A DNA stretch of 64,000 bases, from IMG/VR virus record IMGVR_UViG_3300022719_000284, positions 26,827 through 90,826 of that record. One strand, 5' to 3'. Every line of letters starts with the position of its first letter. Positions within the stretch are counted from its first letter, which is position 1. A program made the position numbers and the translations under genes. The notes beneath the pieces were generated by a model that searched no databases, was not told the DNA's origin, and worked only from the letters and a program-made list of their open reading frames with translations. The DNA comes from a virus (taxonomy: Duplodnaviria > Heunggongvirae > Uroviricota > Caudoviricetes). Positions 3,809 through 31,574 of this stretch are shown here, one piece after another.

Positions 3809-4950
3809 AAAGCAAAAGCAAGCACTCAGACAGATTCAGCCATGCCGAGTTCAAAGCTATTCATAGTTTGTATTCTGCCGGAGTTACGTGTTCTGAACTT
3901 GCTGAAAGATTTGGAATCAACAGAGATTTCATTTCTGGTTTATGTACTGGATTGGACGCCCAAACTAGTTTAACTAGGAGTTACAAATTTAATGAAGTCT
4001 CTTTGGTTCCGCAGAAAAATATTTGCACATCTAGATTAGATCCCGATACTCGTTCTGAAGCTGTCAGAGGAGTGTGGTTAGATACACCTTTAATTGCGTC
4101 CAACATGTCCACAGTATGTAACTCTTCCTTTTGCGCTAAACTTGATTCGCTTGGTGCTATGGGTGTACTGCATCGCGCAGCAACAGATCAAAACTTGATT
4201 CAAGAGGTAAAAGATCTTGCAGCAACAGGAAGTAAAAATGTCGCAGCTTCAATAGGTGTAGGAGATAAACAATTTGAGCTGGCTAAGAAGTTTGTTGATG
4301 TAGGTGCTAATATCATTGTCATCGATATTGCCAATGGTTACACCGATACTGTTATAGAGCTTGGAAAAAAAATCAAAACTCACTTGCCTGTAAAGTTGAT
4401 AATTGGAAACACAACCAATGTTGGATTGATGTATGAAGTCGAGGGCTTTGCCGATGCTGTGAAATGTGGGGTGGGGGGAGGACTCGCTTGCGAAACAGCT
4501 TTTATGGCAGGGTTTACAGAAGGGCAATATTCTGCTGTTCTGAAATTTAAGGAGATATCAAAGAAACTGGGTCTGCCAGTTATCAGTGATGGTGGGATTA
4601 GAGAGCCAGGGGATTTAGTGAAAGCTATAGCTGCGGGAGCTGGGTCAGCTATGGCTGGGTCGATTTTTGCCCGTTGTCCAGAAAGTGCAGGGGATATTGT
4701 GACTTTGGAGGATGGATCACGTAAAAAGCTGTATGCAGGTATGGCGTCAAGACATGTTCAAAATCAATGGAGAGGCGGATTAAAGGACGGAACGTGTCCA
4801 GAAGGGGCAGTGAAGTATCTAGATATAGGAGAACCGGTAGAGGAACTTATTGAGAGATATTCCGGTGCCCTACGTTCAGGAATTACATATTCAGGGGGTA
4901 AAACAATTGATTCTCTTCGCGATGTTGAAGTGATTAACGTTAAGCAATAG
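3805..4950 (+). CDS. guaC: GMP reductase / IMP dehydrogenase family enzyme (no CBS domains) with N-terminal HTH extension
   Basis: PLIASNMSTV, GVLHR, IVIDIANG, catalytic loop GVGGGLACET, VISDGGIR, YAGMAS, PEG, LRSGITYSG; GuaC versus GuaB not resolvable by eye. Confidence 0.8.
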   Translation: MKSKSKHSDRFSHAEFKAIHSLYSAGVTCSELAERFGINRDFISGLCTGLDAQTSLTRSYKFNEVSLVPQKNICTSRLDPDTRSEAVRGVWLDTPLIASNMSTVCNSSFCAKLDSLGAMGVLHRAATDQNLIQEVKDLAATGSKNVAASIGVGDKQFELAKKFVDVGANIIVIDIANGYTDTVIELGKKIKTHLPVKLIIGNTTNVGLMYEVEGFADAVKCGVGGGLACETAFMAGFTEGQYSAVLKFKEISKKLGLPVISDGGIREPGDLVKAIAAGAGSAMAGSIFARCPESAGDIVTLEDGSRKKLYAGMASRHVQNQWRGGLKDGTCPEGAVKYLDIGEPVEELIERYSGALRSGITYSGGKTIDSLRDVEVINVKQ

Positions 4951-4985
4951 TCATACAGAACGTAAACTATAAAGTAAGGTAAGAA

Positions 4986-5333
4986 ATGGGTAAGGTATCC
5001 GTATCAGATGAAGTTTTGGCCGATGTGTTGATTGATAGGATTAATCAACTGATTAAGGACGATAGCGTCAGGAAGGCACTAGGTGACCTTTGCTTGAAAG
5101 GGAAGGTTACTGTTACTGGTTCTGTTGTGGATCACCCTAGCATTCAAATTTTGTCCAAGGGGGACGAATTTGTTTTGGGTTTCTTGGGTATGTTAAACGG
5201 AATTGTAGGTTCAATTGATGGTGGTCCCCTGGACCGTTGCGGTTATATCGCAGCAGTCTATGACAAACCCTCCGAAGACGCAGAGGTAGAAGACTTTGAG
5301 TTACTTCATTTTAAAAGATTCGACAGAGAATGA
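4986..5333 (+). CDS. Hypothetical protein
   Basis: 115-aa ORF in the operon with AAGG-type RBS. Confidence 0.6.
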   Translation: MGKVSVSDEVLADVLIDRINQLIKDDSVRKALGDLCLKGKVTVTGSVVDHPSIQILSKGDEFVLGFLGMLNGIVGSIDGGPLDRCGYIAAVYDKPSEDAEVEDFELLHFKRFDRE

Positions 5334-5362: not shown

Positions 5363-5713
5363 ATGAGGTGTAGGCAGTGCCCAAAACCTGGGTCCCCAAT
5401 TAACAACCTATTAAACAGGTTGGGAAGTGAGGAGTCCGTCACGGTGTTATCTGCTTGCGCTGGGTATATTTATGATGGGCATGTTAATTTACCTGAAAAG
5501 CCGTACATCTTGTTCGCTGTAAAGCACATAGGTATTTTAGATAAATTGTGGAGACAGGTGTTCAGTCGTCTCAATGTTCCGAGTTATTTGATCTACAACG
5601 GATCTAGACAATTTTTACTCGAAATAGATATGCCTTCTAACTGGCCCAACAGGGATGAGTTACTTACAAAGGTGTGGGCCATAATAGATCAACGTGTAAG
5701 GGATTTGTCATGA
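5363..5713 (+). CDS. Hypothetical protein
   Basis: 116-aa ORF, ATGA overlap with the next gene. Confidence 0.55.
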   Translation: MRCRQCPKPGSPINNLLNRLGSEESVTVLSACAGYIYDGHVNLPEKPYILFAVKHIGILDKLWRQVFSRLNVPSYLIYNGSRQFLLEIDMPSNWPNRDELLTKVWAIIDQRVRDLS

Positions 5714-6204
5714 AACTTTTTATCATAGGATCCGGCCGTCACGGAAAAGATACTGTTGGGGAAATTATTCATAAAAATTATGGATTGACTTTTAGATCTT
5801 CTTCCATGTTTTGTGCAGAAAATGTCGTTAGGCCCTGGTTGGAAAATTTAGGAATATTTTATAATACTATAGAAGAGTGTTACGAAGACAGGACAAATCG
5901 TAGAGTAGAGTGGTATGAAGCAATAAGAGATTATAATAAAAATGATGAATCAAGATTGTCTTCAGCAATTCTTTCTACATATGATATTTACGTAGGTATA
6001 AGAAACAGGGTAGAATTTTTAGCATCCAAGCACCTATCAGATCTTAGTATATGGGTCGATGCGTCCAAAAGAGTCAATATAGCGGACCCTACAATCAAGA
6101 TTAAACCTGGGGATTGCGATATCATTATTGATAATAACGGAACAGAAGAAGAGTTGCACGAAAAAGTCACTAGATTATTCGATTGTATAGTTAGAAACAA
6201 TTAG
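5710..6204 (+). CDS. Deoxynucleoside monophosphate kinase
   Basis: N-terminal P-loop IIGSGRHGKDT, GIRNRVE, C-terminal DIIIDNNGT typical of phage dNMP kinases. Confidence 0.8.
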   Translation: MKLFIIGSGRHGKDTVGEIIHKNYGLTFRSSSMFCAENVVRPWLENLGIFYNTIEECYEDRTNRRVEWYEAIRDYNKNDESRLSSAILSTYDIYVGIRNRVEFLASKHLSDLSIWVDASKRVNIADPTIKIKPGDCDIIIDNNGTEEELHEKVTRLFDCIVRNN

Positions 6205-6249: not shown

Positions 6250-7299
6250 ATGTCTTTTGCACTTAAGTATCGTCCCCTAACTCTTGACGATATGGTTGGT
6301 CAAGATGCCGCTGTAAAGCAAATTAGGGGTTTGTTATCTAGGGAAGATATTCCTCATTCTATCCTTATAACAGGACCAACAGGGTCTGGCAAAACTACTC
6401 TAGCTAGAATCATAGCTAGAACGGTAAACGATATTCCTTCTGATTCAAAAAAGCTAATAGATACTCATGAGATTGACGGGGCAGAGTCCAGAGGTATTGA
6501 CGACGTTCGGCAATTAATAAGGGCGGCAAAGTTTTCCCCCAGAAAGAATTATCGAGTCTATATATTGGATGAGATACACCAATGGACCCCACAAGCTAAG
6601 CAGGCTTTCCTAAAAACCCTTGAAGAACCTCCCTCTAGAACTTTATTTGTACTTTGCACAAATGAGCCTGAAAAGTTGCCAGATACAATACGTGGAAGAT
6701 GTCATCAGATTAGGCTATCAAAAGTAAGTCTTGAGAATACTGTAATTCTTCTAAAAAGAGTTTCTGAAAAAGAAGGAATTGCTTTACCGATAAATGTATT
6801 AGAGAAAATAGCTCACCTCACAAGTGGGCATCTTAGAGATTCTTTGAATGCTCTTGAAGCTGTTTTTAATTACTCCTCTGGTGGGGGAAACATTAACGAG
6901 ACTGAAGGTGTGGTCTCCGCTGTAGAGCAAGTTGTTTTAATACCACCTAGGGATTACTTGCATAAGTATCTTCTTTCTGTTTATAAGGGTAAATATGCAA
7001 TAGCTTTGAGAATATCTAATGTTGTTGAAAATGTGGATTATTTTTTAGCATGTTTGATGGAAGCCCATGAACAAGCTATCCATGCTTTGGTAAGTGAAAA
7101 GTTGATTACACCTTACACCAGTAATTGGGCTGATAAGGTGAAAGAAGTTGTTGATAGGACAGATTTAGAAATAATGTCAAACATGCTTGACGAGATGGTA
7201 AAAAGTATGGTCTTAATTAAAGAGAGGACTGTAGACTCTAACAGAGTTTTGACAGCCCTTACTGCACGAATCGTAACCATGAAAAATAGATCGGATTGA
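6250..7299 (+). CDS. dnaX: DNA polymerase III clamp-loader gamma/tau-like subunit
   Basis: ALKYRP..DDMVGQ, GPTGSGKTT, YILDEIH, FLKTLEEPP, TIRGRC, GHLRDSLN. Confidence 0.92.
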   Translation: MSFALKYRPLTLDDMVGQDAAVKQIRGLLSREDIPHSILITGPTGSGKTTLARIIARTVNDIPSDSKKLIDTHEIDGAESRGIDDVRQLIRAAKFSPRKNYRVYILDEIHQWTPQAKQAFLKTLEEPPSRTLFVLCTNEPEKLPDTIRGRCHQIRLSKVSLENTVILLKRVSEKEGIALPINVLEKIAHLTSGHLRDSLNALEAVFNYSSGGGNINETEGVVSAVEQVVLIPPRDYLHKYLLSVYKGKYAIALRISNVVENVDYFLACLMEAHEQAIHALVSEKLITPYTSNWADKVKEVVDRTDLEIMSNMLDEMVKSMVLIKERTVDSNRVLTALTARIVTMKNRSD

Positions 7300-7314
7300 A
7301 AAATAGATCGGATT
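7281..7314 (+). repeat. Perfect 17-bp tandem duplication GAAAAATAGATCGGATT x2
   Basis: 7281-7297 is identical to 7298-7314; the junction creates the dnaX TGA stop. Confidence 0.9.
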
Positions 7315-7344
7315 TCGAAGGGGAATCCGCACAGGAGTAAAGAT

Positions 7345-10300
7345 ATGTCAGAATTCTCTGTTCCGACCGGGATGCCTAGGTCGGTATGGGAAAACAAGTA
7401 TGCCCGTAAGCTTGACGGAACTGGAAGACAAGGAAACGCTAGAAATGAGACAGGGTTTCAAAGTTGGTCTGATCGTGTAAGTGAGGTAGTTCAAGGCAAT
7501 TTCCTGTTAGATCCCAGACCTAGAAAAGTTTTTGAGACAGAACTGGAAGAAACCTTGGCTCTTGCCAAGGCAGGAATAATGCCTTTTTCTGGAAGGCATC
7601 TCCAGCATGGAGATTTAGGTCAGCCTGACCGGATCATGGAGAGCTACACAAATTGCTCTACTGCAATATTTAGCTTTATAAAATTCTGGCTACTCTTGAA
7701 GGGTTCTGGGGTTGGTCGTTGTTACGATTCGGACCTATGTAGAGTGGATTGGAGTTTTATGCCTAACACTAGATTTGTACTTGACGAGAATCATCCCGAT
7801 TTCGAGGAAGGTATAGAATCATTGGCTGAGGCAAAGCATAAATATGATAGTGAATCCGAAGAGGTGAGGTGGTTTGAAGTAGAGGATTCTGGTGAAGGTT
7901 GGGTTAAGGTGGTAGAAATTTTAGAAACCGCGGCTTTTCAACATAAGCATGAAAATAAGCTTTTCATTTTTGATTTTTCAAAAGTTCGAGGAAAAGGAGT
8001 CCCCATTAAAGGACAACAAGGTCGCCCTGCTTCTGGTCCTGTTCCATTTATTAGAGTGTTGAAAAAAGTAGCATCTATCAAAGGTGCGGGCATGAAGCCT
8101 TGGAAGCAGGCTATGTTTATAGACCATTATCTATCGTCATGCGTAGCTGTGGGCGGCATTCGTCGTTGCTTACCTGCTGGTACGTTAGTCCAAGCTGAAA
8201 GCGGTCTTATTCCCATCGAAACTGTCAAGATAGGTTGCCAAGTAAAAACTAGCAAAGGTTTTAGTACAGTTACCGATACTTTAGACCAAGGTATTCAAAC
8301 AGTTAGTAGAATTATAACCCAAATGGGTAGCTTTGACTGCACTAAAGATCATCGGGTTGCAGTCATGCTCGATTACAAGGGTAACTACATATGGAAGAAA
8401 GCCGGTGAGCTGAAATCTGGAGATAGGTTAGTATTTCCTTCTCATGAAATCCCGGGAACAAAAACCAGCCTTCCTGAGTTTTCCTATGTTAAGCCAAAAC
8501 ATTCTACTACCTGTGTAGGTATAAAAATCCCAGAACTTACCCCAGAGATAGCTTGGTTTTTAGGTTTGTTTGCTGGAGATGGTTATATTTCCGAGCCTGC
8601 GCATAGGGGCTATGGAGCTGTAGCTCTGCATCAAGACCAATTGGATATTAAAGAACGGGCTCAAAATGCATTGAATTCCTTCGGAATATCATCTTCGTAT
8701 AAAAAATTCGAAGGAAAGCAAGCTAGGTTGGATTTCAAATCCCAGCAATTAGGAATATTCCTAAGAGAATATATTAAGCGGCCCAATGAAGCCCTAAAAG
8801 TTCCCGAGTTTATTTTGCAGGGGTTGCCGAGTATTAGAGCTGCCTATGTAGCAGGATTGTTTGATGCTGACGGGTCCTCTAGCACTAGACCACTACAAGT
8901 TGTATCTTCTGTTTACAAAAGCTATGTAGTAGAAGTTCAAGCGTTGCTTGTTTCTTTGGGTATAGCTTCTGTAATAAAAGAGAAAAAAAGAAAAGAAAAG
9001 GGCTGGAAAACTATTTATATTTTGTCTGTTAAAGGAGAAACCTTCAAAGAACATTTTGCTAAAAAGGTATCATGTTTTTCTTCTAAATTTTCTGTTGGAA
9101 ATGTTAATGTAACACGAAGCTCACATGCTTATGGATTTCCTTCCGAGTGGATAGACTTTCCCGATAAACATAAATGGTCTCCACGAAATCCTCAGATGTT
9201 AACAGAGACTTTTACAAAAATTACAGGGCAGGATGTAAGTCTTTTCCCGATAGAAGTCCTAGAAGTAAAGCTAGATTGTTACGAATGCCCTACGTTTGAT
9301 ATTACAGTGGAAGCTGAAGAATTCTCTCTAGGCTCCGGTATTTTAGTACACAATTCCGCTCGTATAGCTACAAAAAGCTGGAGAGACAAAGACGTTATAG
9401 AATTCATTGACATAAAAAGAGTAGAGTCTGAAAAAGCTAAATTATACACAGCTAACAATAGTGTGACAGTAGACGCTGAGTTTTGGGAACAGGCCCTTCG
9501 ACCAGAGCCTTCGCATGCACGTAGAGTTTTTGAGGCTGCTGTTGGTGCTGCTTACTTTGACAAAACAGGTGAACCTGGGTTCTTGAACGTAGATCTTTTA
9601 ACCAACAATGAAACTGGATTAGATAAAGTTACCAAAGATAATTACATAAGTTCAGAAATGTCCACTATGCTTAATCTCCATGACCGCACAATGGATATGA
9701 TCGATCATACTCTGAAATGGGCTAAGAAAAAGAAGTATAAATTTATCGTGAACCCGTGTGTAACAGCAGACACATGGGTGAATACATCTCACGGGCCAAG
9801 ACAGGTACAAGATCTAATAAACAAACCTTTTACTGCTGTAGTTAATGGAAAAGAGTACAAAGCTTCAGGGTTCTGGGAAACAGGTATCAAGACCGTCTAT
9901 GAGGTGAAAACTGCTCGCGGCTATAAGCTCAAAGCAACAGCTAACCACAAGCTTCTGGTGGAGACCAGCCGCAAGCAAAAATATGGCGGCGGGTACAACA
10001 CAACTACAGAATGGGTGGCGGTTGGAGACCTATCTGTAGGCAACAATCTTGTCCTATCAAACAATTGCACAGAGGTTGCGCGCAACACTGTAGAGTTCGA
10101 TAATGGCTGGTTGCTTGGCGAGATAGTGGGGGACGGCGGACACAACCCTGAAAAGTATCCATCGTATGTTAGATTTTGGGGGGAGCATAAGGAATCCCTA
10201 GCGTCATTAGCTCTTGGTATAGCTAAAAGACTTCCCAACATAGAGTCCTCTGTACCTTTTGGACAGATTCAGAACTGTGGAGAAACCTCTCAGGTAGCTA

Positions 10301-16763: not shown

Positions 16764-17618
16764 ATGGGATACTTACATATTGATAACCTCTATAAGAACA
16801 CGGAAATCATGCTCTTTAGGGAGTGTTTTGCACTAGAGAAGATCCACGGTACTTCTGCCCATGTAGCATGGAAAGATGGTATAATTAGGTTTTTCTCAGG
16901 TGGATCAAATCACGATTCTTTTGTTTCCCTGTTTGACGCTGAGGGTCTTCGGTCCAAGTTCTTGGAATTGGGTCATGACAACGTGGTGGTCTATGGTGAA
17001 GCCTACGGTGGTAAAGTGCAGCGCATGAGGGAAACTTACGGCTCTAGCCTTAGATTTATAGCCTTTGATGTAAAGGTTGGAGATTGTTGGCTAACTGTAC
17101 CTAACGCTCATGATGTAGCTGTAAGGATGGATATAGACTTTGTTCATTACGAGAAGGTATCTACAGATCTTGAGTCTCTGAACGCTCAGCGTGATGCAGA
17201 TTCTATTCAGGCAATCCGAAATGGTATAGGTCCTGGCAAGATGCGTGAGGGTGTTATCTTGCGACCTCTTATCGAAGTTACACGAAATGATGGAAAGAGA
17301 ATCATCGTGAAACATAAGAGGGATGAATTTAAGGAAACTAGGACCCCACGGGAAATTGATCCTGAAAAGTTGAAGATACTAGAGAAAGCCGAGGCTATTG
17401 CCGAAGAATGGGTAACTGATGAACGTCTTAGGCACGTTCTTGATAAACTTCCTCAGGGTATTGGTCTTGAAGGCACTGGTCAAGTAATTAAGGCTATGAA
17501 AGAAGACGTACTTAGAGAAGCACAAGGCGAAATTGTAGATTCTAAGGATGCCCGGAAAGCAATTGGGCGGAGAACCTCTCTGCTATTCAAGAAGTTTATC
17601 AAATCCAGCATAGAGTAA
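16764..17618 (+). CDS. ATP-dependent RNA ligase (Rnl2-like)
   Basis: Motif I EKIHGTS, VYGEAYG, FIAFDV, REGVILRP, VKHKRDEFKE. Confidence 0.8.
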   Translation: MGYLHIDNLYKNTEIMLFRECFALEKIHGTSAHVAWKDGIIRFFSGGSNHDSFVSLFDAEGLRSKFLELGHDNVVVYGEAYGGKVQRMRETYGSSLRFIAFDVKVGDCWLTVPNAHDVAVRMDIDFVHYEKVSTDLESLNAQRDADSIQAIRNGIGPGKMREGVILRPLIEVTRNDGKRIIVKHKRDEFKETRTPREIDPEKLKILEKAEAIAEEWVTDERLRHVLDKLPQGIGLEGTGQVIKAMKEDVLREAQGEIVDSKDARKAIGRRTSLLFKKFIKSSIE

Positions 17619-17639: not shown

Positions 17640-17906
17640 TTAGGAACCAACAAGAGAAAGAGCATATACAGGGACGTTGCACCTATTTTCCCCTATACCG
17701 CCCCTTTTTGTTTCATCCGGCTTAGACAAAGCTGCTATATCACCATCATCTGTGTTTGTTTTCAAAATCGAAACTATAGTCCACTCATAAAGTGTTTGGT
17801 TCCCATCTTGGGCATATTTTACCGGATCTACATGCCAAACTCTATCACCCTTTTTCACCCTTTTTACATTGATATTTCGTTTAGGTGATTTCTTGTTGGA
17901 AGTCAT
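17640..17906 (-). CDS. Hypothetical protein
   Basis: 88 aa, ATGA overlap with the end of NAMPT. Confidence 0.55.
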   Translation of the reverse strand: MTSNKKSPKRNINVKRVKKGDRVWHVDPVKYAQDGNQTLYEWTIVSILKTNTDDGDIAALSKPDETKRGGIGENRCNVPVYALSLVGS

Positions 17907-19348
17907 TCTCTAGCTCTTTTGCGAACATTCTCAAATGTAGTCACCTGAGAAGCACCATTCTCATAAATGACTTGCATTATATCCCCAAGTTGACCCACCT
18001 GACCTAGAACGACTCCGCCATCAACTCCGAGGACAGTAGCCCTACCTTTAAGGGAAACTTTGTCGGCATCTGTCTTGGGCATTTTTTGCATATCTCGCCA
18101 AATCCCGTCCTTATCCATACGAGCGGTGGCTTTCATAGAGAAACTGAAGTCATCCCGACCAGAGCCATTGGTCATCCCTCCACCAAATCCGAAAACAAAA
18201 TTGCTGGCGGCTAGCTTGCGGATTGTAGCAAGGTCAAAAATCTGCTTGAAATTATGGAGCTTCAGTCCATCGCCTTGAATGACGCCAAGATGCGGAGGAA
18301 GAGTTTGAAACCCTTTCTCGTTTCTTTCAGACCACACTGGATAAACCCCATCAAGAAGCCATTCGACGACTTCTACTGGCTTCTTAACGGCATTTCCGGA
18401 ATCAGGTCGGCAGACGTACTTACCCCCGGTTTCTTTAATACGCTCGTGATTAGGAATAACGAATTCTTTGATGTATCTCTCGTCATCAAATGTATCAATT
18501 AATGAAGAAATAAGAGGAATACCGATCCCTCTGTTAGCCTGCTTAACAACACGATCCAGAGTTTCCAGGCTCATCTTGAAAGCAGCACTGTCATCTCGGG
18601 CTTCACAATCTGAATTAGCACATACAACACTGTGCTCATTAGCATCCACAGAAGAAAGTGTGGGTAGAGTGGTGTTATAGAGTCTCTTGATGAATCGGTT
18701 TGCCTCTAGGCAGTCGGATCCGCTAAAGAACACCGCATGTGCGATACCGGCCATGAGAGCCCGGTCCCTACCACCAGCCCCACGGTCACCGAAGTTGTGA
18801 ACCATGTATTCCGCAGTTTCGACTGGAGTGCCTGTGATTTCGCAAAATTTATTCACTTGTTTTCGTAGATAGCGAACTTTGGAGGCAATCGTGGTCATGA
18901 CCCACACGATATCCTGTACCCAGGTTTCTACGTAAGCAGGGAGCCAAGGGAAGCGATCATCGGTGTTTTCGACCGACATTATAGGCAGTCCAACCGGAAT
19001 AACTGTTCCCTCCGGTACGGCGCGAACCTTCAGGGGAAGGTATCCCAGATCTAGAAGGGATTCCCACTCGGCCCGGGGAAACTCGTACCCCTGCTCCGTG
19101 ATTTCGGTCTCGGCCTCGTCGATCATATTGTTGGTTATCTTTGTTGACCTCAGGATCTCGGATACGATCTGGGGACCGAGAACTACGATCTCGTTGATCT
19201 TGATGTTGTGGTCCTGATCCACAAAGGGTTTCCTGGCTACTACGTTGGAATGAATTTTTCGAGTTCCCGCCGGAAGGTGTAGACGGTGACCAACCTTATA
19301 GGAATCGGCGGCTAGAATAAAATTGCTATCGAGTAGATTTTGGAACAT
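17903..19348 (-). CDS. nadV: Nicotinamide phosphoribosyltransferase (NAMPT/NadV)
   Basis: LAADSYKVGH, VHNFGDRG, ANEHSV, CRPDSG, VIQGDG, FGFGGG, RDDFSFSMKAT. Confidence 0.93.
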   Translation of the reverse strand: MFQNLLDSNFILAADSYKVGHRLHLPAGTRKIHSNVVARKPFVDQDHNIKINEIVVLGPQIVSEILRSTKITNNMIDEAETEITEQGYEFPRAEWESLLDLGYLPLKVRAVPEGTVIPVGLPIMSVENTDDRFPWLPAYVETWVQDIVWVMTTIASKVRYLRKQVNKFCEITGTPVETAEYMVHNFGDRGAGGRDRALMAGIAHAVFFSGSDCLEANRFIKRLYNTTLPTLSSVDANEHSVVCANSDCEARDDSAAFKMSLETLDRVVKQANRGIGIPLISSLIDTFDDERYIKEFVIPNHERIKETGGKYVCRPDSGNAVKKPVEVVEWLLDGVYPVWSERNEKGFQTLPPHLGVIQGDGLKLHNFKQIFDLATIRKLAASNFVFGFGGGMTNGSGRDDFSFSMKATARMDKDGIWRDMQKMPKTDADKVSLKGRATVLGVDGGVVLGQVGQLGDIMQVIYENGASQVTTFENVRKRARE

Positions 19349-19387
19349 TTTATTTTCCTTTCTTTTCGGGTCTTCTTCCGCGACCCT
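19349..19387 (-). promoter_or_regulatory. Conserved leader hairpin (GGGUC-GCGGAAGAA-GACCC) plus purine-rich tail upstream of NAMPT
   Basis: 24 of 30 positions identical to the element upstream of nadM; the stem differences preserve pairing. Confidence 0.65.
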
Positions 19388-19396
19388 AGATCTAAT

Positions 19397-20494
19397 TTAT
19401 GAAGTGATGAAGTTGCTAATTATCGAAATATGATCCTCAAAAAATTCGTCCGCGCGTCGCATTACTTCAACATACGGCATCCACTGACATTTTACAGAGT
19501 CATCTGCTCCTGTCAGTTTAACTTCAGGTAACTTGCCTTCAAGCTTGACGTGAAAGGCGTGCGTTACAGTTCTACCGCGCTCGCTACGTTCGGGATAGTC
19601 GAACACTTCACTATCGACAATAGCCCTTTTTAGTACAGGTTTATCGATCTTGATTCTGGTCTCTTCCTTCAATTCACGAATTGCTGCATCCTTGATTCTC
19701 TCAGATTCTCGAATAAAACCCCCAGGAAGAGCCCAAAGACCCTTGCCGGGATTACCTCCACGTTTCACCACTAGGACATGACCGCCGCATGTAACGACAG
19801 CATCAGCCGTAATGAAAGTGGGAGGAAAGGGAGCAACAGACCACGATTTTCTATAGGCTTTATTGGCATGGAATTCTTCCACTAGCCGACCGAAGCGTTG
19901 GGTTTTCCGAAATTCTTGAAGAAATTCAGCAACCTGAATCGGAAGATTGTCAAAAAAGAAATCGTTCTGCTTCAGTTTTTCGTCTTCTTTGACGGTGGGT
20001 TCTCCATCCAGAGCCTTGTCCGCCCAAGTTCTCCCTATCTCTACGTCGAACAAAACTTCTCTAATTGAGGTGGCATCAAGATCAGAATGCACCTTGGTAT
20101 AAATGAACTCCCACTGGGGGAAGAAATTTAGGTAATATGAGGAACTATCCTTGAAGGACCCCATCAGAGCAACCGTCTCACCGTCCTCGATGTAGTTAGA
20201 GACCACGCCCTGAACCTGAGCTAGCCAAGTGTTGTCACTGTAGAAGTAGTCCCGTATGGGTTCGATCTCGACACGATTTCCCGAGCCTAGAATATTGAAA
20301 CACCTGCTAATCATTCGACGGCGTTCCTCGAACGTAAACGGATTCTTGGGGGTGGGAGCTGCGTGGGAACTGCCGACGAGGATGATAACCTTGTCTGCAA
20401 TTTCCAGGGCGTGCTCGACCAGTGCTTTATGCGTAGTATGAAAAGGCTGAAAGCGTCCGATCAGGACGGCAGCCGAGTAATCTCGGTGAGTCAT
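19397..20494 (-). CDS. nadM: Bifunctional NMN adenylyltransferase / Nudix ADP-ribose hydrolase (NadM-Nudix)
   Basis: IGRFQPFHTTH (HxGH-like), KNPFTFEER, Nudix box GGFIRESERIKDAAIRELKEET, FFEDHISII. Confidence 0.93.
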   Translation of the reverse strand: MTHRDYSAAVLIGRFQPFHTTHKALVEHALEIADKVIILVGSSHAAPTPKNPFTFEERRRMISRCFNILGSGNRVEIEPIRDYFYSDNTWLAQVQGVVSNYIEDGETVALMGSFKDSSSYYLNFFPQWEFIYTKVHSDLDATSIREVLFDVEIGRTWADKALDGEPTVKEDEKLKQNDFFFDNLPIQVAEFLQEFRKTQRFGRLVEEFHANKAYRKSWSVAPFPPTFITADAVVTCGGHVLVVKRGGNPGKGLWALPGGFIRESERIKDAAIRELKEETRIKIDKPVLKRAIVDSEVFDYPERSERGRTVTHAFHVKLEGKLPEVKLTGADDSVKCQWMPYVEVMRRADEFFEDHISIISNFITS

Positions 20495-20535
20495 TTCTAT
20501 TCTCGCTTTCGTTTCGGACCTGCTTCCGAGGCCCT
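20495..20535 (-). promoter_or_regulatory. Conserved leader hairpin (GGGCCU-CGGAAGC-AGGUCC) plus purine-rich tail upstream of nadM
   Basis: Second copy of the NAMPT leader element, with a compensatory U-A to C-G change. Confidence 0.65.
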
Positions 20536-20573
20536 ACAGTGGGGAGATAACAATCTCCTTGGGTTCCTTTAGT

Positions 20574-20601
20574 GTAGCGACACATCCAGGCTGAAACTTT
20601 A
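20574..20601 (-). promoter_or_regulatory. Sigma28-like promoter for the NAD+ salvage operon (TAAAGTTT..., TAAA-N16-GTCGCTAC)
   Basis: Motif copy with A-rich UP-like region upstream. Confidence 0.5.
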
Positions 20602-20667
20602 ATTTCTATCTATTTTATTTTTCGATACCAGTTGTAAAATTAGGTTATTACATGAAAATAATATTTA

Positions 20668-22728
20668 TTACTCCACATCCGATTCAAATATAGCCGTAAT
20701 CTTATCTGTGCATAGCTGCCACCCGAAGCGGCCCCAAGGTCCTCCAAAAGAATACTTTTGAGGGTCAAAGTCTCTAGGTCTATTTCCATCGCATAGGAAA
20801 ATGACATAAAGTTCATCAATTTCTCTCATGGCAAGAATCCATTTGTTATTTTCATCTTCCGGGTCAACTTCATAATTGTTTCTAACACTATTTCTTGCTA
20901 GCTGTAGAGAACCTTCATTGTCCGTGATTACAATTACAGCTTGGAACCCTTTTTGGACAATGTGCTCTGCCACGGCGGGAAAATGGGTACCGCCAGTCCC
21001 AATGAATACATTATCATCGCGCCCAGGGATGGGCTTCACCACAACAGAGGAAAATTGATACATTTCACAACCAAATTCTTTCAATTGATTGGAAATGTAT
21101 AGAGCAACAGAATACCACATATTCATCGAATAAGACACGTCTGTGTAAATTACAAGCTCATTTTGCTCAAGATACTGGGGAGTATCCCACATTACAGGAG
21201 TATCACCCATACCCATGCGAATCATGTCACGCCGAGACGGACGATTCGGCATATTAAAATCAGGGCGGATGATCTTATGCTCGGTAACGCGCATAGTGGC
21301 GATGTTCTGAACCAATTCGTCAGCAAATTTCTTTACAGCGCCTTTGATTTGAACGGTATTAGTCTTAAAAGACTCGGTTAGAACCGATCCACCCAGCTCC
21401 AGCAGCTCTCTGTCTACTTCAGATAGATCTTGTACTTCTTTAGGAACAACCTCAGTGCGAGTAAGGTTACCACCCCAAGAAGCTCCGTTGTATCCACCTT
21501 CTGCAAAAACTTCAATGTCAGAGTCAGAGCCGTTAGGGTCCTTACGAAGATCCTCATTTTCAAGATTGTCTAGCTTTTCTTCCAAACCATCAATTGATAC
21601 TACGATATCTGGGATTCTAGCAAGACGCTCCTTAAGAGACATAGGCTTGGAGAATAGACCTTCTCCCCCATTACAAGTGCAAGGCTTAGATCCTCTGTGA
21701 GTATGCTTCCCAGGTTGAGGCTTGTTTCCTGATCCATCATTTTTATCAGTTCTATTGTCAGAATTTGTTCCTTCTCCCTGGCCTTCTCCCTGGCCTTCTC
21801 CCTGGCCTTCTCCCTGGCCTTCTCCCTGGCCTTCTCCCTGGCCTTCTCCCTGGCCTTCTCCCTGGCCTTCTCCCTGGTTAGAGGGATGTTGGGGACAATC
21901 CCCATCATGTTCACTGTCTGCCCCAGCCCGATCTAGATCGTCTTTGTGGACTTCAAGCCAATCACAAAATAATTCATACCACTCTGGAAAGGACAGCATA
22001 GATCTTCCCGCTCTCGGGTTTCCTACCCCGAAAATAGCTCGAAGACCGTGAGCATCTGTATACAGACCCTCGTGGGAACGTCTAATATCTTTATTAACAA
22101 AACTTGAAAGACAAGTTAGAATAGCGTACTCTTCGGATTTTGGCTCACCAACAACATGAATATTGGGATCGAAGCCTGACCCGTTAGGGTTACTTTCTGA
22201 AGGCATCCCAGGATTATCCGCGTCTGCCTCAGACCAGCAATAGAATGTCTCAGGTAGCGTAGCTAAAATACCCATCTGGGATCTTACACTGGCATTAATC
22301 CAAGCGTCTTCTACAACATTTCGGATCTTGTAAACCCATTCTTCATTGTAATCTAGAATCTTATTTAAACGACCCCAATTGACCCTATAGATCCGTCTAA
22401 GTAGTCTATGGTCCCTTTCATGCATGACAACAAACAAAAGATCTTTTAGAGAATTAATTTTCTCCATAATGAATTTAGGATTGATTCGAACCCTACCATC
22501 TAGGAGATTTACCATAGCAGTTTCTACGGGATGGTCTCTGAAGGATTCGCATAGGGTAAGGGATGTAATATGCCCCCATAGCACCGGTAGGTCCTTGTTT
22601 CCATACAGCTCGGCAAAGTCTTCTGTTAGAAGAATATTATGTAGATCACGCTCGGCGCCATTAAGGTCGTTTGCCTTGATTTTGTCTTTAATACCATCTA
22701 GATAAGTTTTTACGTTTTTAGTGCTCAT
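20668..22728 (-). CDS. vWA-domain protein with N-terminal HExxH putative metallopeptidase domain (DUF2201-like; MoxR partner)
   Basis: VMHERDH, low-complexity QGEG linker, MIDAS YTDVSYSM, GTGGT, VITD. Confidence 0.8.
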   Translation of the reverse strand: MSTKNVKTYLDGIKDKIKANDLNGAERDLHNILLTEDFAELYGNKDLPVLWGHITSLTLCESFRDHPVETAMVNLLDGRVRINPKFIMEKINSLKDLLFVVMHERDHRLLRRIYRVNWGRLNKILDYNEEWVYKIRNVVEDAWINASVRSQMGILATLPETFYCWSEADADNPGMPSESNPNGSGFDPNIHVVGEPKSEEYAILTCLSSFVNKDIRRSHEGLYTDAHGLRAIFGVGNPRAGRSMLSFPEWYELFCDWLEVHKDDLDRAGADSEHDGDCPQHPSNQGEGQGEGQGEGQGEGQGEGQGEGQGEGQGEGQGEGTNSDNRTDKNDGSGNKPQPGKHTHRGSKPCTCNGGEGLFSKPMSLKERLARIPDIVVSIDGLEEKLDNLENEDLRKDPNGSDSDIEVFAEGGYNGASWGGNLTRTEVVPKEVQDLSEVDRELLELGGSVLTESFKTNTVQIKGAVKKFADELVQNIATMRVTEHKIIRPDFNMPNRPSRRDMIRMGMGDTPVMWDTPQYLEQNELVIYTDVSYSMNMWYSVALYISNQLKEFGCEMYQFSSVVVKPIPGRDDNVFIGTGGTHFPAVAEHIVQKGFQAVIVITDNEGSLQLARNSVRNNYEVDPEDENNKWILAMREIDELYVIFLCDGNRPRDFDPQKYSFGGPWGRFGWQLCTDKITAIFESDVE
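21770..21877. repeat. Perfect 12-bp tandem repeat CCTTCTCCCTGG x9 (encodes QGEG x9)
   Basis: Nine identical units read directly from the sequence. Confidence 0.95.
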
Positions 22729-23429: not shown

Positions 23430-24650
23430 TTACTTGCTCCTGTTTTTTCTACCGCTGCGAAGTGCTTTTGGGCCGTAGTTGGTTAGGGTGCTTTTGAGAG
23501 CTTTGAAAGCATCTTCGACCTTTGCATCCTTGTCAAGGGATAGCACCACTGATCTAGCAGCGAAGGATTGTCTTAGTAAATCAAAAATTTCTGGCTCTAT
23601 ATCGATTCGATTCTTAACAACATCCCAAGCCTTTGCAACCATTTCAGGGTCGTTTTCCTGTTCTAGCATGTCACTAATAGCCGCAGCATGGCCGCGGGCA
23701 TCCTTAATCTTTGCCTCACAAAGCTCGACTACATTTGATGCTGTGAGTACGGGGTCGCTAAGCTTGAAACCATGAAGAATGCCCTTCACTTCTGCTTCAA
23801 TTTTCCTTTTGTCTACCGTAGACCTGATCAAGCCAGTGCATTCCGGGACAAGACTCATTACAGCTTGAGTTAAAATATTTGTGTCAAAGTCAATGTCTTC
23901 GAATGTTTGGGACACCCTATCCATGTTGGAAAACAGTTTATACAGGTCACGAGTTTGACGACCTGAAAACTGAATGTCTTTACCATTAAGGATCTCAGAA
24001 ATTTTGAGAACTTTTTGTTCAATTGCCTTGTTTTGGGCTTTAGGAATCTTCGCAGAGCGAGCTTTATCCATCAAGTCTTTGAGACTTCCGGGATTGGTTT
24101 TATCGGAAATTCCGAAAATCTTACGTCGCTCCCTGTTTGAGATATCGCTAAATGACGGGACATTAAGCACGATGAATCGAGAAACCTGTGCTGGGTCCAT
24201 GTGAGCAGTGTTGTATTTGTCAGGAGGATTACAAGCTGCCCAAACAAACTCTAGGTTTGTAGACCTACCGTTAATCGTTCTATTTCTAACGATTTCGAAA
24301 AATTTTGCAGCATTGTATGGGTTACATCGATTGATTTCGTCCAGTAGACAGGATGTCGCAGTCCAGATGCAATCTGGGGTTTCGATGTATTCGATATCAC
24401 CCTCTGCTAGCTTCTTAGGATGTAGAAAGCCCAGCAAATCGTCAGCGTTTACGAGAGAAGTATCGTAAGGAACAAATTTCGTCTCTTCTCCGAAGACGGC
24501 TTCGGAGATACGTTGGCATCCTTCAGTCTTGTTAGATCCATGAGGACCATTAAGAAGAACGCTTTTGTTTGAGAGGATGGCACCGAGGATAATCCCTTCG
24601 ATATTAGCCCACCCCAGAATTCCGATTTTTTCAAAGTAAGATTTATTCAT
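23430..24650 (-). CDS. MoxR-family AAA+ ATPase
   Basis: ILGWANIE, Walker A variant GPHGSNKT, Walker B LLDEINR, AACNP, MDPAQVSRF, SGRQ. Confidence 0.85.
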   Translation of the reverse strand: MNKSYFEKIGILGWANIEGIILGAILSNKSVLLNGPHGSNKTEGCQRISEAVFGEETKFVPYDTSLVNADDLLGFLHPKKLAEGDIEYIETPDCIWTATSCLLDEINRCNPYNAAKFFEIVRNRTINGRSTNLEFVWAACNPPDKYNTAHMDPAQVSRFIVLNVPSFSDISNRERRKIFGISDKTNPGSLKDLMDKARSAKIPKAQNKAIEQKVLKISEILNGKDIQFSGRQTRDLYKLFSNMDRVSQTFEDIDFDTNILTQAVMSLVPECTGLIRSTVDKRKIEAEVKGILHGFKLSDPVLTASNVVELCEAKIKDARGHAAAISDMLEQENDPEMVAKAWDVVKNRIDIEPEIFDLLRQSFAARSVVLSLDKDAKVEDAFKALKSTLTNYGPKALRSGRKNRSK

Positions 24651-26379: not shown

Positions 26380-27055
26380 GTTTCAGACTATAACATCTGA
26401 AGACTACGATGCTTTGTTTGCCAAACAAGGATACGTATGTGCCATCTGTTCTGCCCCCTACAGTAATAGTACCAAGAAATTTCCGGTAGATCACGACCAT
26501 AACAGTGGTCAGGCGAGAGGCATTATATGCTGGCGGTGTAACACAGCATTAGACGCTATAGGGAATACAAAGGAGTCTGTTCATAAGTTTCTTGATTACC
26601 TTGAAGGAGGCTATTTGTCCTGGGACAACTACTTCATTGAGCACGCTCGCGTAGTTTCTAAAAAGTCAAAAGACCCCTCCACTAAAGTGGGCGCGATTTT
26701 GGTCAAGAACAGAAGAATCATAAGCTCCGGCTACAATGGATTGCCTGCTGCATTGGAAGACACAGCAGAGAGGTATGAAAAACCGCTAAAGTATGAGTAC
26801 ATATTGCACGCTGAAGAGAATGCTATTATTCAGTGTACGCAACCAGACACAGGTAGCTCACAGGGAACTACCATGTATTTGTACCCTTTACCCCCATGCC
26901 ATGAGTGTGCAAAAACTATTATACAAGCAGGCGTAGAAAGAGTAGTGTACTACGCACCTAAAGGTGTTCCTGATCGTTGGGCATCTGGCATTAAATTGTC
27001 TTTTTCAATGCTACAAGAGGCCAATATAACAGTTATAAATATAGAAAAGCCCTAA
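26369..27055 (+). CDS. Fusion of recombination endonuclease VII-type HNH domain and dCMP deaminase
   Basis: CAIC..VDHDH..RGIICWRCN, then SWDNYF, HAEENAI, PCHECAK; single open frame. Confidence 0.85.
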   Translation: MTTKFQTITSEDYDALFAKQGYVCAICSAPYSNSTKKFPVDHDHNSGQARGIICWRCNTALDAIGNTKESVHKFLDYLEGGYLSWDNYFIEHARVVSKKSKDPSTKVGAILVKNRRIISSGYNGLPAALEDTAERYEKPLKYEYILHAEENAIIQCTQPDTGSSQGTTMYLYPLPPCHECAKTIIQAGVERVVYYAPKGVPDRWASGIKLSFSMLQEANITVINIEKP

Positions 27056-29513: not shown

Positions 29514-29953
29514 TGTCTGATAACGGCGATAGCAAAATATACGAGTTGAAACATATTGATAGAAAATCAGCCACAAAGGTAGGTACTATTGTAAGTGTTA
29601 CAGAACACGGTGTAATTTTTAGAGTAGGTGGATACAGAAATCAATCTAAAGGGAGGGAAATTTTCTTCAGGAATGAAGACATTCTCAGCATAGGAGAAGC
29701 CTCCACTAAACAAGTTGCCACTCTAGAGAGAAGAGAATCGAAAGAAAATAGCAAAGCAGTTAAAAAAATTTCTACTAAAAAAACCAAAATAGAGGCAGCC
29801 CCTCTCCCTACAGAGGAAAAACCCCCAAAAGATATCAAACCCGAATCTGATTCTGAATCTGATGTGGATCGCGGAAAGGTAGATTTTAATGAAGATGAGT
29901 TAAATGACGATGACGATGACCTATACGATGACGATGATGGGTGGGAGGATTAA
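29513..29953 (+). CDS. Hypothetical protein with acidic tail
   Basis: 146 aa, coupled by TAATG. Confidence 0.65.
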   Translation: MSDNGDSKIYELKHIDRKSATKVGTIVSVTEHGVIFRVGGYRNQSKGREIFFRNEDILSIGEASTKQVATLERRESKENSKAVKKISTKKTKIEAAPLPTEEKPPKDIKPESDSESDVDRGKVDFNEDELNDDDDDLYDDDDGWED

Positions 29954-30151: not shown

Positions 30152-31574
30152 GTATGTGACTCCAGACATGAGGGATTCTTGGACTTATGAGGTTCCTGAC
30201 CCTGATGGTGATCATCCTGATGATAAAATCTCGATAGTTCTTTATCGAGAGTATAAAAATGGGTCTGTCACAGGATTCTGTAGGGGCGACCTAGGGAAGA
30301 TTCGAAAAGTCTTCAAACCGACAGGCATCCAGATAAAAGATCGCCGGGTTTGTCCTCCTATGACGCATCCTATTTCGATGCGTACAACCTTGTTCACTCC
30401 CGAAACTGATATTTATGGTAGAAATCAGCAGCAAGTTTCCAGTGAATGGAGAAAAAAAGGCTATGGACAACTTTGTTGCCCTGCAAGGTTTGGAAAAACC
30501 GTTACGGTAACTGACATTGTATGTAAAACTGGCACCAAGGCATTAATACTTTCCCACCAATGGGATATTTTAGAGCAATTTCATAGAACTATACGAGAGC
30601 ACACAGATATTGATGATGTAGAGAAAATGGCTGGTCGTAAACTAGTTGCTCTTTTGAGAGATCATAGCTGGGACGACATTGAAAATCTGGAAATAGTTCT
30701 CTCGTCTTGGCAATCATGGTGGCACCCCTCCAAGCAACATTACCTAAAAAAGCATAGAGATACTTTTGGCATTGTCTTGGTAGATGAAAGTCATTTGTCG
30801 CAAGCTTCGTGTTATAGTAAGGTAGTAAATTCTTTTAATTCCAAGTATCGTTGCGGTAATACTGCTACCCCCTTCAAAATGAATGAACTTCATGTCATAA
30901 TTGAGAATATTATCGGTCCTGTTGTAACTGAAGGCTACAGTAAGCAAATGAAGTGTGCGGTTGAATATACTCACACTGGCTACGTAGTTGAAAAATTTCC
31001 TAAGGGAAAATGGACCACTATGATCTCTAGAATTGTAGAAGACGAAAAAAGAAATCAACTCATAGTTGATAAAGCTATCGAGGATGCAGAGAATGGCCGT
31101 CACGTTCTAATTACCACGGAACGGACTGAACATGCAAAAAAATTGGCTTCTATGATAGATGAGAAAGGGATTCCTGCAATTCACGTAATAGGCTCAACTG
31201 CGGAAAGAGATGCCGTTTGGGAGAAGGCCCGCAATGGAGAAGTTAAAGTGGTAGTTGCTATGAGGAGAATAACTCGTCTAGGAATTGATGTTCCTCTATG
31301 GGATACTTTCTATAACATCATTCCTACCTCCGATCCCTACAATTATTATCAAGAATTATCAAGAATTAGAACCTTTTACGAAGGTAAGCCTTTACCTTTG
31401 ATTCGTGATTTTATCGACGACCCTGAAGAGGAAGTTCGTGGGGCTATATTTGGAACCATGAAAAAAAGAAACTCTGTATATCTAGATCAAGGGTTTGAAG
31501 TCAGAAATGCATCCTTCCGGAAGAAGACCCCTAGCAAGCGTTTTAGTTGGGGTAAGCGAACTTGTAAAGAATGA
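30081..31574 (+). CDS. Superfamily 2 (UvsW/XPB-like) helicase
   Basis: Motif I CPARFGKT, DESH, TATP, LGIDVP; GAGGAG RBS before the GTG. Confidence 0.85.
   Translation: MPRRITKTSPPKAILRERLFVPTKYVTPDMRDSWTYEVPDPDGDHPDDKISIVLYREYKNGSVTGFCRGDLGKIRKVFKPTGIQIKDRRVCPPMTHPISMRTTLFTPETDIYGRNQQQVSSEWRKKGYGQLCCPARFGKTVTVTDIVCKTGTKALILSHQWDILEQFHRTIREHTDIDDVEKMAGRKLVALLRDHSWDDIENLEIVLSSWQSWWHPSKQHYLKKHRDTFGIVLVDESHLSQASCYSKVVNSFNSKYRCGNTATPFKMNELHVIIENIIGPVVTEGYSKQMKCAVEYTHTGYVVEKFPKGKWTTMISRIVEDEKRNQLIVDKAIEDAENGRHVLITTERTEHAKKLASMIDEKGIPAIHVIGSTAERDAVWEKARNGEVKVVVAMRRITRLGIDVPLWDTFYNIIPTSDPYNYYQELSRIRTFYEGKPLPLIRDFIDDPEEEVRGAIFGTMKKRNSVYLDQGFEVRNASFRKKTPSKRFSWGKRTCKE

Follow-up and report, generated by a model that had tools for sequence, protein, structure and literature searches.

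A leader hairpin flanked by UAG and GAA in front of the NAD+ salvage genes of a Caudoviricetes phage

Two hairpins at the NAD+ salvage locus

We analyse a short hairpin motif that occurs twice in a 64,000-nucleotide (nt) stretch of an uncultured jumbo phage of the Caudoviricetes (positions 26,827 to 90,826 of IMG/VR record IMGVR_UViG_3300022719_000284; hereafter the window), which is part of one virus record of 210,369 bp, referred to below as its own genome. The minus strand of the window encodes NadM-Nudix and, after a short spacer, NAMPT (nadV), and one copy of the motif stands before each of the two genes. These proteins constitute the phage nicotinamide adenine dinucleotide (NAD+) reconstitution pathway 2, which counters NAD-depleting defences such as Thoeris, DSR and SIR2-type systems (bioRxiv 10.1101/2024.02.11.579819). 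We suggest that both hairpins are very probably an undescribed control element of this NAD-rebuilding pathway, used against the NAD-destroying defences.

The 30-nt copies at 19358-19387 and 20506-20535 of the minus strand lie directly 5′ of NAMPT and NadM-Nudix, respectively. A first-pass annotation of the window had quoted both strings, and they read exactly so on this strand; they are identical at 24 of 30 positions, and their stems differ by one U-A to C-G and one G-C to G-U change, as it had also stated. The hairpin of copy B, in the nadM-Nudix leader, has six pairs including the G-C closing pair and a loop of 7 nt, and is followed by an 18-nt tail of purines only that reaches the AUG at 20494. 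Copy A has five pairs and a loop of 9 nt, and its tail, with an AGGA ribosome-binding site, reaches the AUG at 19348. The minimum-free-energy and the centroid folds both contain the hairpin in each of the two leaders.

With up to three mismatches, a degenerate 30-nt pattern of the two copies matches the window at these two places only, and it has no match in 100 dinucleotide shuffles of the window. Matches to the inner 13-mer at 31518 and 58234 lie within coding regions with the flanks missing and were rejected.

Features of the NAD+ salvage locus (window coordinates)
Feature	Coordinates	Strand	Details
NAMPT (nadV) gene	17903..19348	minus	presumed second regulated gene; Pfam NAPRTase 1.6e-17, NAMPT_N 5.8e-09
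Copy A of the motif	19365..19388	minus	in the 48-nt spacer nadM-Nudix/NAMPT; model R1 32.6 bits
Copy A, parts	UAG 19388-19386; hairpin 19386-19368; GAA 19367-19365	minus	
nadM-Nudix gene	19397..20494	minus	presumed first regulated gene; nicotinamide mononucleotide (NMN) adenylyltransferase fused to a Nudix ADP-ribose pyrophosphatase domain; Pfam CTP_transf_like 3.4e-10, NUDIX 4e-19
Copy B of the motif	20513..20536	minus	nadM-Nudix leader; model R1 36.3 bits
Copy B, parts	UAG 20536-20534; hairpin 20534-20516; GAA 20515-20513	minus	
Extra 6-bp hairpin	20543..20558	minus	start of the nadM leader only, between promoter-like element and motif
Sigma-28-like (FliA-type) promoter-like element	20574..20601	minus	TAAAGTTT, 12-nt spacer, weak GCCGATAA-like box
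686-amino-acid (aa) open reading frame (ORF)	20668-22728	minus	upstream of nadM; 173-nt gap to nadM-Nudix

Conservation, covariation and gene specificity

The motif is found in related phages, which we designate by their L numbers: 25 UAG-bearing copies occur in 13 phage or metagenome contigs, and L234 has a variant with CAG instead of UAG. The closest NadM-Nudix in IMG/VR (L001; 66% identity, on a 267-kb contig) has the hairpin before nadM at the same place and a second one before NAMPT, with stems that differ from those of the window by matched changes and, in the nadM copy, an all-A tetraloop. In the far more distant phages L002 and L003, where NadM is in both cases 49% and NAMPT 33% and 31% identical to the proteins of the window, respectively, the motif again precedes both genes, and that of L003 has a G+C content of 22-26%. 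A metagenome scan gave further contigs with NadM 42-75% identical, nearly all with the motif before nadM, nadV or both; the carriers are L227, L228, L230, L231, L232, L235, L237 and L238. Across the carriers the G+C content of the motif ranges from 22 to 60%.

The GenBank phage collection holds no close relative, with only 69-71% identity over 185 nt within nadM, and none of the bacterial NadM loci examined (Hylemonella, Deinococcus, Hydrogenophaga and others) has the motif. An alignment-seeded viral scan gave L070 as the sole new carrier among the 600 candidates listed, and scans seeded with the L070 and L003 proteins gave no new carriers. Weak model matches at L063, L064, L077 and L108, and in the window at 29719 and 27056, were set aside as chance or unconvincing.

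All copies follow a common plan. The triplet UAG, usually preceded by G, stands 5′ of the stem, so that its own G opens the helix; the stem of 5-7 bp carries a purine-rich loop of 4-9 nt; and the closing pyrimidine (Y) of the stem is followed by an invariant GAA, which continues into the ribosome-binding site. The spacing from UAG to YGAA is constant at 16-18 nt, the stem ends 12-25 nt before the AUG, and about seven letters are invariant. The CGGAAG loop and the exact tail, which the first-pass annotation had called invariant, are so within this genome; across the relatives it is the UAG on the 5′ side and the GAA on the 3′ side that are invariant instead.

Six copies have their UAG in use as the stop codon of the gene upstream; in the others it is out of frame or non-coding. 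Hence, the UAG belongs to the motif itself and is used as a stop only opportunistically, and for the same reason a role as a recoding signal is unlikely. We also rejected a leader peptide ending at the UAG, as no in-frame start codon lies upstream of it in the nadM leaders.

The motif keeps its place when other genes intervene. In L001 an HNH or endonuclease VII homing-type ORF (4103-4660) separates nadM from nadV and ends with the UAG of the nadV motif as its stop codon, and in L003 the same interval is occupied by Macro-domain and NADAR-domain genes (ADP-ribose processing; 4266-5271), neither of which is preceded by the motif; in both phages the motif still adjoins nadV. The nadV copy of L002 lies inside the end of the nadM coding region, and that of L003 inside the NADAR gene. 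In L070 a terminator-like hairpin ending in a U run stands immediately before each copy (3920-3995 and 5030-5097). The two terminator stems differ, and the roughly 50 nt from the motif to the Shine-Dalgarno sequence are identical between the two leaders, which suggests a recent copy-over between them.

The hairpin structure is under selection. In a plain MAFFT alignment of eight copies from four phages (A2), 92.9% of the cells pair, six of the seven pairs are changed on both sides, and none of 500 shuffles reaches the covariation score; when the 3′ partners are slid by 1-3 columns, pairing falls to 27-52%. A larger alignment of 24 copies (A7) was fitted to the model, so that its pair counts lean towards the structure; there 87% of the cells pair, six of the seven pairs are again changed on both sides (43 double-changed cells), and again no shuffle out of 500 attains the score. 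The covariance check that the first-pass annotation had proposed in related phages therefore comes out with both conservation and covariation, and the compensatory changes conserve the element in phages of about 25% to 57% G+C. A resemblance to CRISPR repeats, which a hairpin followed by GAAA may call to mind, was rejected, since the stems differ between the two copies of one genome.

Of the 23 distinct copies, 11 have G-U and 12 have G-C as the outermost pair. Such frequent G-U closing pairs place the structure on the mRNA strand, since this pairing works only in mRNA-sense RNA. The element therefore acts at the RNA level and in the mRNA sense, which excludes a DNA palindrome recognised by a protein dimer. 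The hairpin is present in all predicted folds, with the ribosome-binding site unpaired, and neither the folds nor the alignment gave a conserved alternative pairing in the carrier leaders. An anti-Shine-Dalgarno helix formed with the 5′ flank, seen in the L003 nadM fold, is not conserved.

The element is specific to NAD-salvage genes. We ran the covariance model R1 on five whole phage records of 210, 267, 150, 65 and 236 kb (about 930 kb). The first-pass annotation had not noticed the hairpin before other genes, and indeed in the whole 210-kb own genome the model exceeds 30 bits at the two copies only, the next match reaching 15.8 bits. L001 (267 kb), L002 (150 kb) and L003 (65 kb) likewise have two NAD leaders above 30 bits each, with next-best matches of 18.7 bits in L001 and 16.1 bits in L003 and none reported in L002. 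The 236-kb L070 record has two diverged, mutually identical copies at 17.4 bits each and no other at E up to 1. A relaxed descriptor finds in the own genome the two copies and four 3-bp A/U chance matches (shuffles give 0-3), so that no further credible copy emerges. The motif was also not found, among the matches listed, in about 210 other NadM loci (about 1.7 Mb) fetched in three viral scans.

In L230 the cluster continues with a 133-aa ORF, prs for phosphoribosyl pyrophosphate (PRPP) synthetase (Pfam 2.6e-53), a 151-aa ORF and a sigma-70-like gene. A short form of the motif, with UAG, a 4-bp stem with a GAAA loop and YGAA, precedes prs (5817-5850), and a full copy precedes the 151-aa ORF after prs (6776-7270), which is thus a candidate for an extra member of the regulon. 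The protein of this ORF belongs to phrog_13623 and has a HAD-like N-terminal motif with His in place of the second Asp. Taken together, conservation, covariation and gene specificity in the relatives strongly support the core of the first-pass proposal, namely a cis-acting RNA element shared by both NAD-salvage genes.

The two-hairpin leader and the surroundings of the motif

About 100 fetched loci have a different nadM/nadV leader, in which a hairpin with an ANAGA pentaloop is followed by a second hairpin with the Shine-Dalgarno sequence in its loop (examples among L004-L306 are L017:5092-5126 and L021:2941-2975). The two forms have much in common: they serve the same two genes, often both genes of one phage, stand directly 5′ of the start codons, and have a covarying stem of 5-9 bp with a short purine loop. 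However, the present motif has no second hairpin, its tails being unpaired purine tracts in the predicted folds, the loops of the window (7 and 9 nt) do not fit ANAGA, and the invariant UAG and GAA flanks are absent from the widespread form. R2, a covariance model of the first hairpin of the two-hairpin leader built from 36 seeds, finds 2941-2975 and 5525-5559 in the bacterial (Cellvibrionaceae) genome L319 (33.8 and 25.3 bits), before nadM and about 1.5 kb beyond. Of the present motif it does not report the window copies, and its best true copy has 14.4 bits with E 3.4 (L238); conversely, R1 does not detect the two-hairpin leaders.

In the NadM-Nudix tree a single clade (support 0.85), with L238 as its sister, unites the proteins that have the UAG-type leader and contains no others, and the neighbouring clade holds C-AGAGA-G two-hairpin leaders, leaderless Deinococcus genes and L237. 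The latter is intermediate, with UAG and GAA flanks, AGAGA and AAUAGA loops and a weak Shine-Dalgarno hairpin, and is the only relative with such loops. The tree and L237 are consistent with derivation and would not amount to proof of it. We consider it probable that the present motif is a lineage-specific derivative of the two-hairpin leader, in which the second hairpin and the loop consensus were lost and the flanks became fixed. Formal membership in the two-hairpin family is unproven, because the ANAGA loop, the Shine-Dalgarno hairpin and detection by R2, each of which we looked for, do not apply to the present motif. This variant narrows down what may be read: it works without the Shine-Dalgarno hairpin or the ANAGA loop and needs UAG and GAA at the base of the helix, which makes these letters clear targets for mutagenesis and binding tests. 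Moreover, the flanked hairpin is a compact signature by which additional regulon members can be sought, in this case prs and the 151-aa protein.

The nadM leader has two further features (see the table). From the sigma-28-like element the nadM-NAMPT transcript probably starts about 70 nt before the nadM AUG, as estimated from the position of the element. Its equivalent in L001 (2884-2911) agrees exactly with the FliA consensus in the upstream box and at seven of eight positions in the downstream box, with an 11-nt spacer, and the element is also present in L228, L232, L234 and L235. L230 encodes a sigma-70 region-2 protein (7267-7917) beside its NAD cluster; hence, a phage sigma factor may drive these units. 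The extra hairpin is conserved with compensatory changes in the closest relatives, and its 3′ arm, made of pyrimidines, shows partial complementarity to the purine tract of the ribosome-binding site (the window, L227, L228, L235 and L001). It is possible that this arm alternatively pairs with that tract, which would give two exclusive pairings in the nadM leaders only. The corresponding region of L235 has a further possible fold, a 5-bp stem that carries an AGAGA loop (R2 match, 13.9 bits).

The 686-aa ORF upstream of nadM contains about nine tandem 12-nt units (21775-21885, minus strand), which encode a Gly-Glu-Gly-Gln repeat in the middle of the protein; the C-terminal half of the protein is conserved in relatives (55-62% identity) and weakly matches an HNH-endonuclease PHROG. 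The NAD cluster is flanked by an RNA ligase family gene (16764-17618, plus strand) and an AAA (MoxR-like) ATPase gene (23430-24650, minus strand).

Possible modes of action and comparison with known systems

That each gene of the pathway has an RNA element devoted to it implies that expression is regulated after transcription. Our literature search found nothing on how phages control the NAD+ reconstitution pathway, and a full-text search found no paper describing the element.

We tentatively favour, as a serious possibility rather than a settled matter, a translational operator bound by a protein. A trans-acting factor would hold both the hairpin base and the purine tail next to it and, once bound, would block the 30S subunit, which binds 12-25 nt downstream, so that both enzymes, and in a relative also prs, would be limited or released together. 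The operator would fit the sequence features because the invariant letters lie at the base of the helix, the loop is free, the span is fixed, the Shine-Dalgarno sequence is open and no alternative fold is present. The reader of the element should be phage-encoded or universal, because the base composition of the carriers varies widely and no bacterial nadM locus has the motif. Probably the factor is a protein that always travels with the element, that is NadM-Nudix or NAMPT itself; autogenous control by one of them is the most economical guess, because they are the only proteins known to be always present. That a protein reads the element, which protein it is and in which direction it acts are what we infer from this arrangement.

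Several points weigh against the operator. The autogenous idea draws on co-occurrence, which common descent would explain as well, and the 88-aa ORF after NAMPT is not conserved in the relatives and so is not a candidate regulator. A nuclease site or a small ligand pocket would be just as compatible with conserved single-stranded letters beside a helix. Between the motif and the ribosome-binding site lie 0 to about 12 nt, so that the geometry of occlusion is not uniform, and the leaders taken whole do not exceed shuffles in stability (z +0.4 to -2.3).

Possible, if rather unlikely, is an mRNA element without any sensor, which would stabilise the transcript as a barrier, mark a processing site or enhance translation and would be read by general host activity, such as the ribosome or RNase E/J-type decay. 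In such a case the hairpin would keep the purine-rich ribosome-binding site open and protect each cistron. This agrees with a ribosome-binding site that is always single-stranded within a tail of nearly all purines, with the lack of an expression platform, with the L070 copies directly after terminator-like hairpins with a U run, as expected at cistron boundaries, and with the UAG that often doubles as the stop codon of the upstream gene. However, a generic barrier needs no invariant UAG and GAA, would not be expected to be restricted to NAD-salvage genes among the hundreds of genes of five genomes, and leaves the attachment of the motif to nadV despite insertions without a reason.

Also unlikely in our view is a minimal riboswitch, in which a small pocket for NAD+, NMN, nicotinamide, ADP-ribose or PRPP would be made up of the UAG, the base of the hairpin and the GAA-purine tail, and docking of the tail in dependence on the ligand would hide or expose the ribosome-binding site. 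The distribution is like that of a regulon, with nadM, nadV, prs and one more gene, the motif occurs in phages of very different base composition and thus needs no host-specific protein, and the NAD+-II riboswitch docks an A-rich strand into a helix groove (PMC10085692). On the other hand, only about seven letters are invariant, the loop varies, neither a pseudoknot partner nor an alternative helix was found, the distance from the motif to the Shine-Dalgarno sequence is variable, and the element has no match in Rfam. When window positions 19300-20720 were compared with Rfam at a permissive threshold (E up to 10), two unrelated chance matches and no NAD family came up, so the known NAD+ riboswitch classes, to which the first-pass annotation had pointed, are not matched there. 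We regard as quite unlikely the more specific idea that the element is a metabolite-sensing RNA of about 30 nt that reads the NAD status and switches on the NAD+ reconstitution genes when host defence destroys NAD+. If true, such a minimal sensor would be a phage riboswitch for counter-defence and a third NAD-related riboswitch class.

The remaining readings are together improbable. A CsrA/RsmA-type operator, likewise suggested in the first pass, in which a global GGA-binding protein clamps the loop GGA and a second GGA at the ribosome-binding site, draws on the GGA of both window loops and the AGGA of the NAMPT tail, yet it is contradicted by several relatives that have no GGA in the loop (all-A tetraloop, AGAAA, AAUUGA), by a window nadM tail that has no GGA outside the loop, and by conserved letters that are UAG and GAA instead of GGA. 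A site read in DNA (a repressor operator, a phage-polymerase promoter or an opposite-strand terminator) would suit an intergenic inverted repeat near gene starts and is highly improbable, given that the stem letters are free and covarying, the frequent G-U pairs would be C-A mismatches in the complementary strand, neither strand has a U run after the hairpin, the L002 and L003 hairpins lie inside the upstream coding region, and some AUGs are only 12-14 nt away, which is too near for a promoter. We rejected an intrinsic terminator as well, since the stem is followed in the mRNA by GAA and purines and the opposite strand has no T run.

Among the known RNA families, NAD+-I (nadA motif) and NAD+-II (pnuC motif) are similarly cis-acting RNAs in the leaders of NAD-metabolism genes. 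NAD+-II, too, combines a hairpin whose loop is free with a strand rich in A close to the ribosome-binding site (PMC7749635, PMC10085692). Its architecture comprises the helices P1 and P1a, an A5 triplex strand and a pseudoknot that involves the ribosome-binding site (PMC7749635, PMC10085692), and none of these features was found in the leaders with the motif. The present element, about half the size of these riboswitches, lacks the bulged tandem domain of the one class, the P1/P1a/pseudoknot fold of the other and the conserved core letters.

The bulged-G module of the sarcin-ricin loop and loop E has AGUA opposite GAA. The GUA on the 5′ strand and the GAA on the 3′ strand of the present motif similarly adjoin a Watson-Crick pair; unlike in the module, the G before UA is absent in about one quarter of the copies (window nadV, L002 nadM, L228 nadV, L238 nadM and the third copy of L230), and the preceding A is not conserved. 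No conserved outer helix was found across the copies, single cases such as L003 nadM apart.

The closest parallels to the operator are the gene 43 operator of T4 and RB69, read by the DNA polymerase, and the thrS operator of E. coli, read by ThrRS, both autogenous translational operators read by enzymes. They combine a small hairpin with an adjoining single strand by or overlapping the ribosome-binding site, and their stem sequence is free; here we find, correspondingly, a hairpin 12-25 nt before the AUG and a GAA that runs into the Shine-Dalgarno sequence. By analogy, the present element would fit as the binding site of a factor that touches both helix base and tail, in competition with the 30S subunit. 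In contrast to these operators, it stands on two to four different genes, not on the regulator's own alone, and its conserved letters are other ones. A leader hairpin that controls translation is a known kind of element, the family to which this one points is undescribed, and the present motif is a distinct variant.

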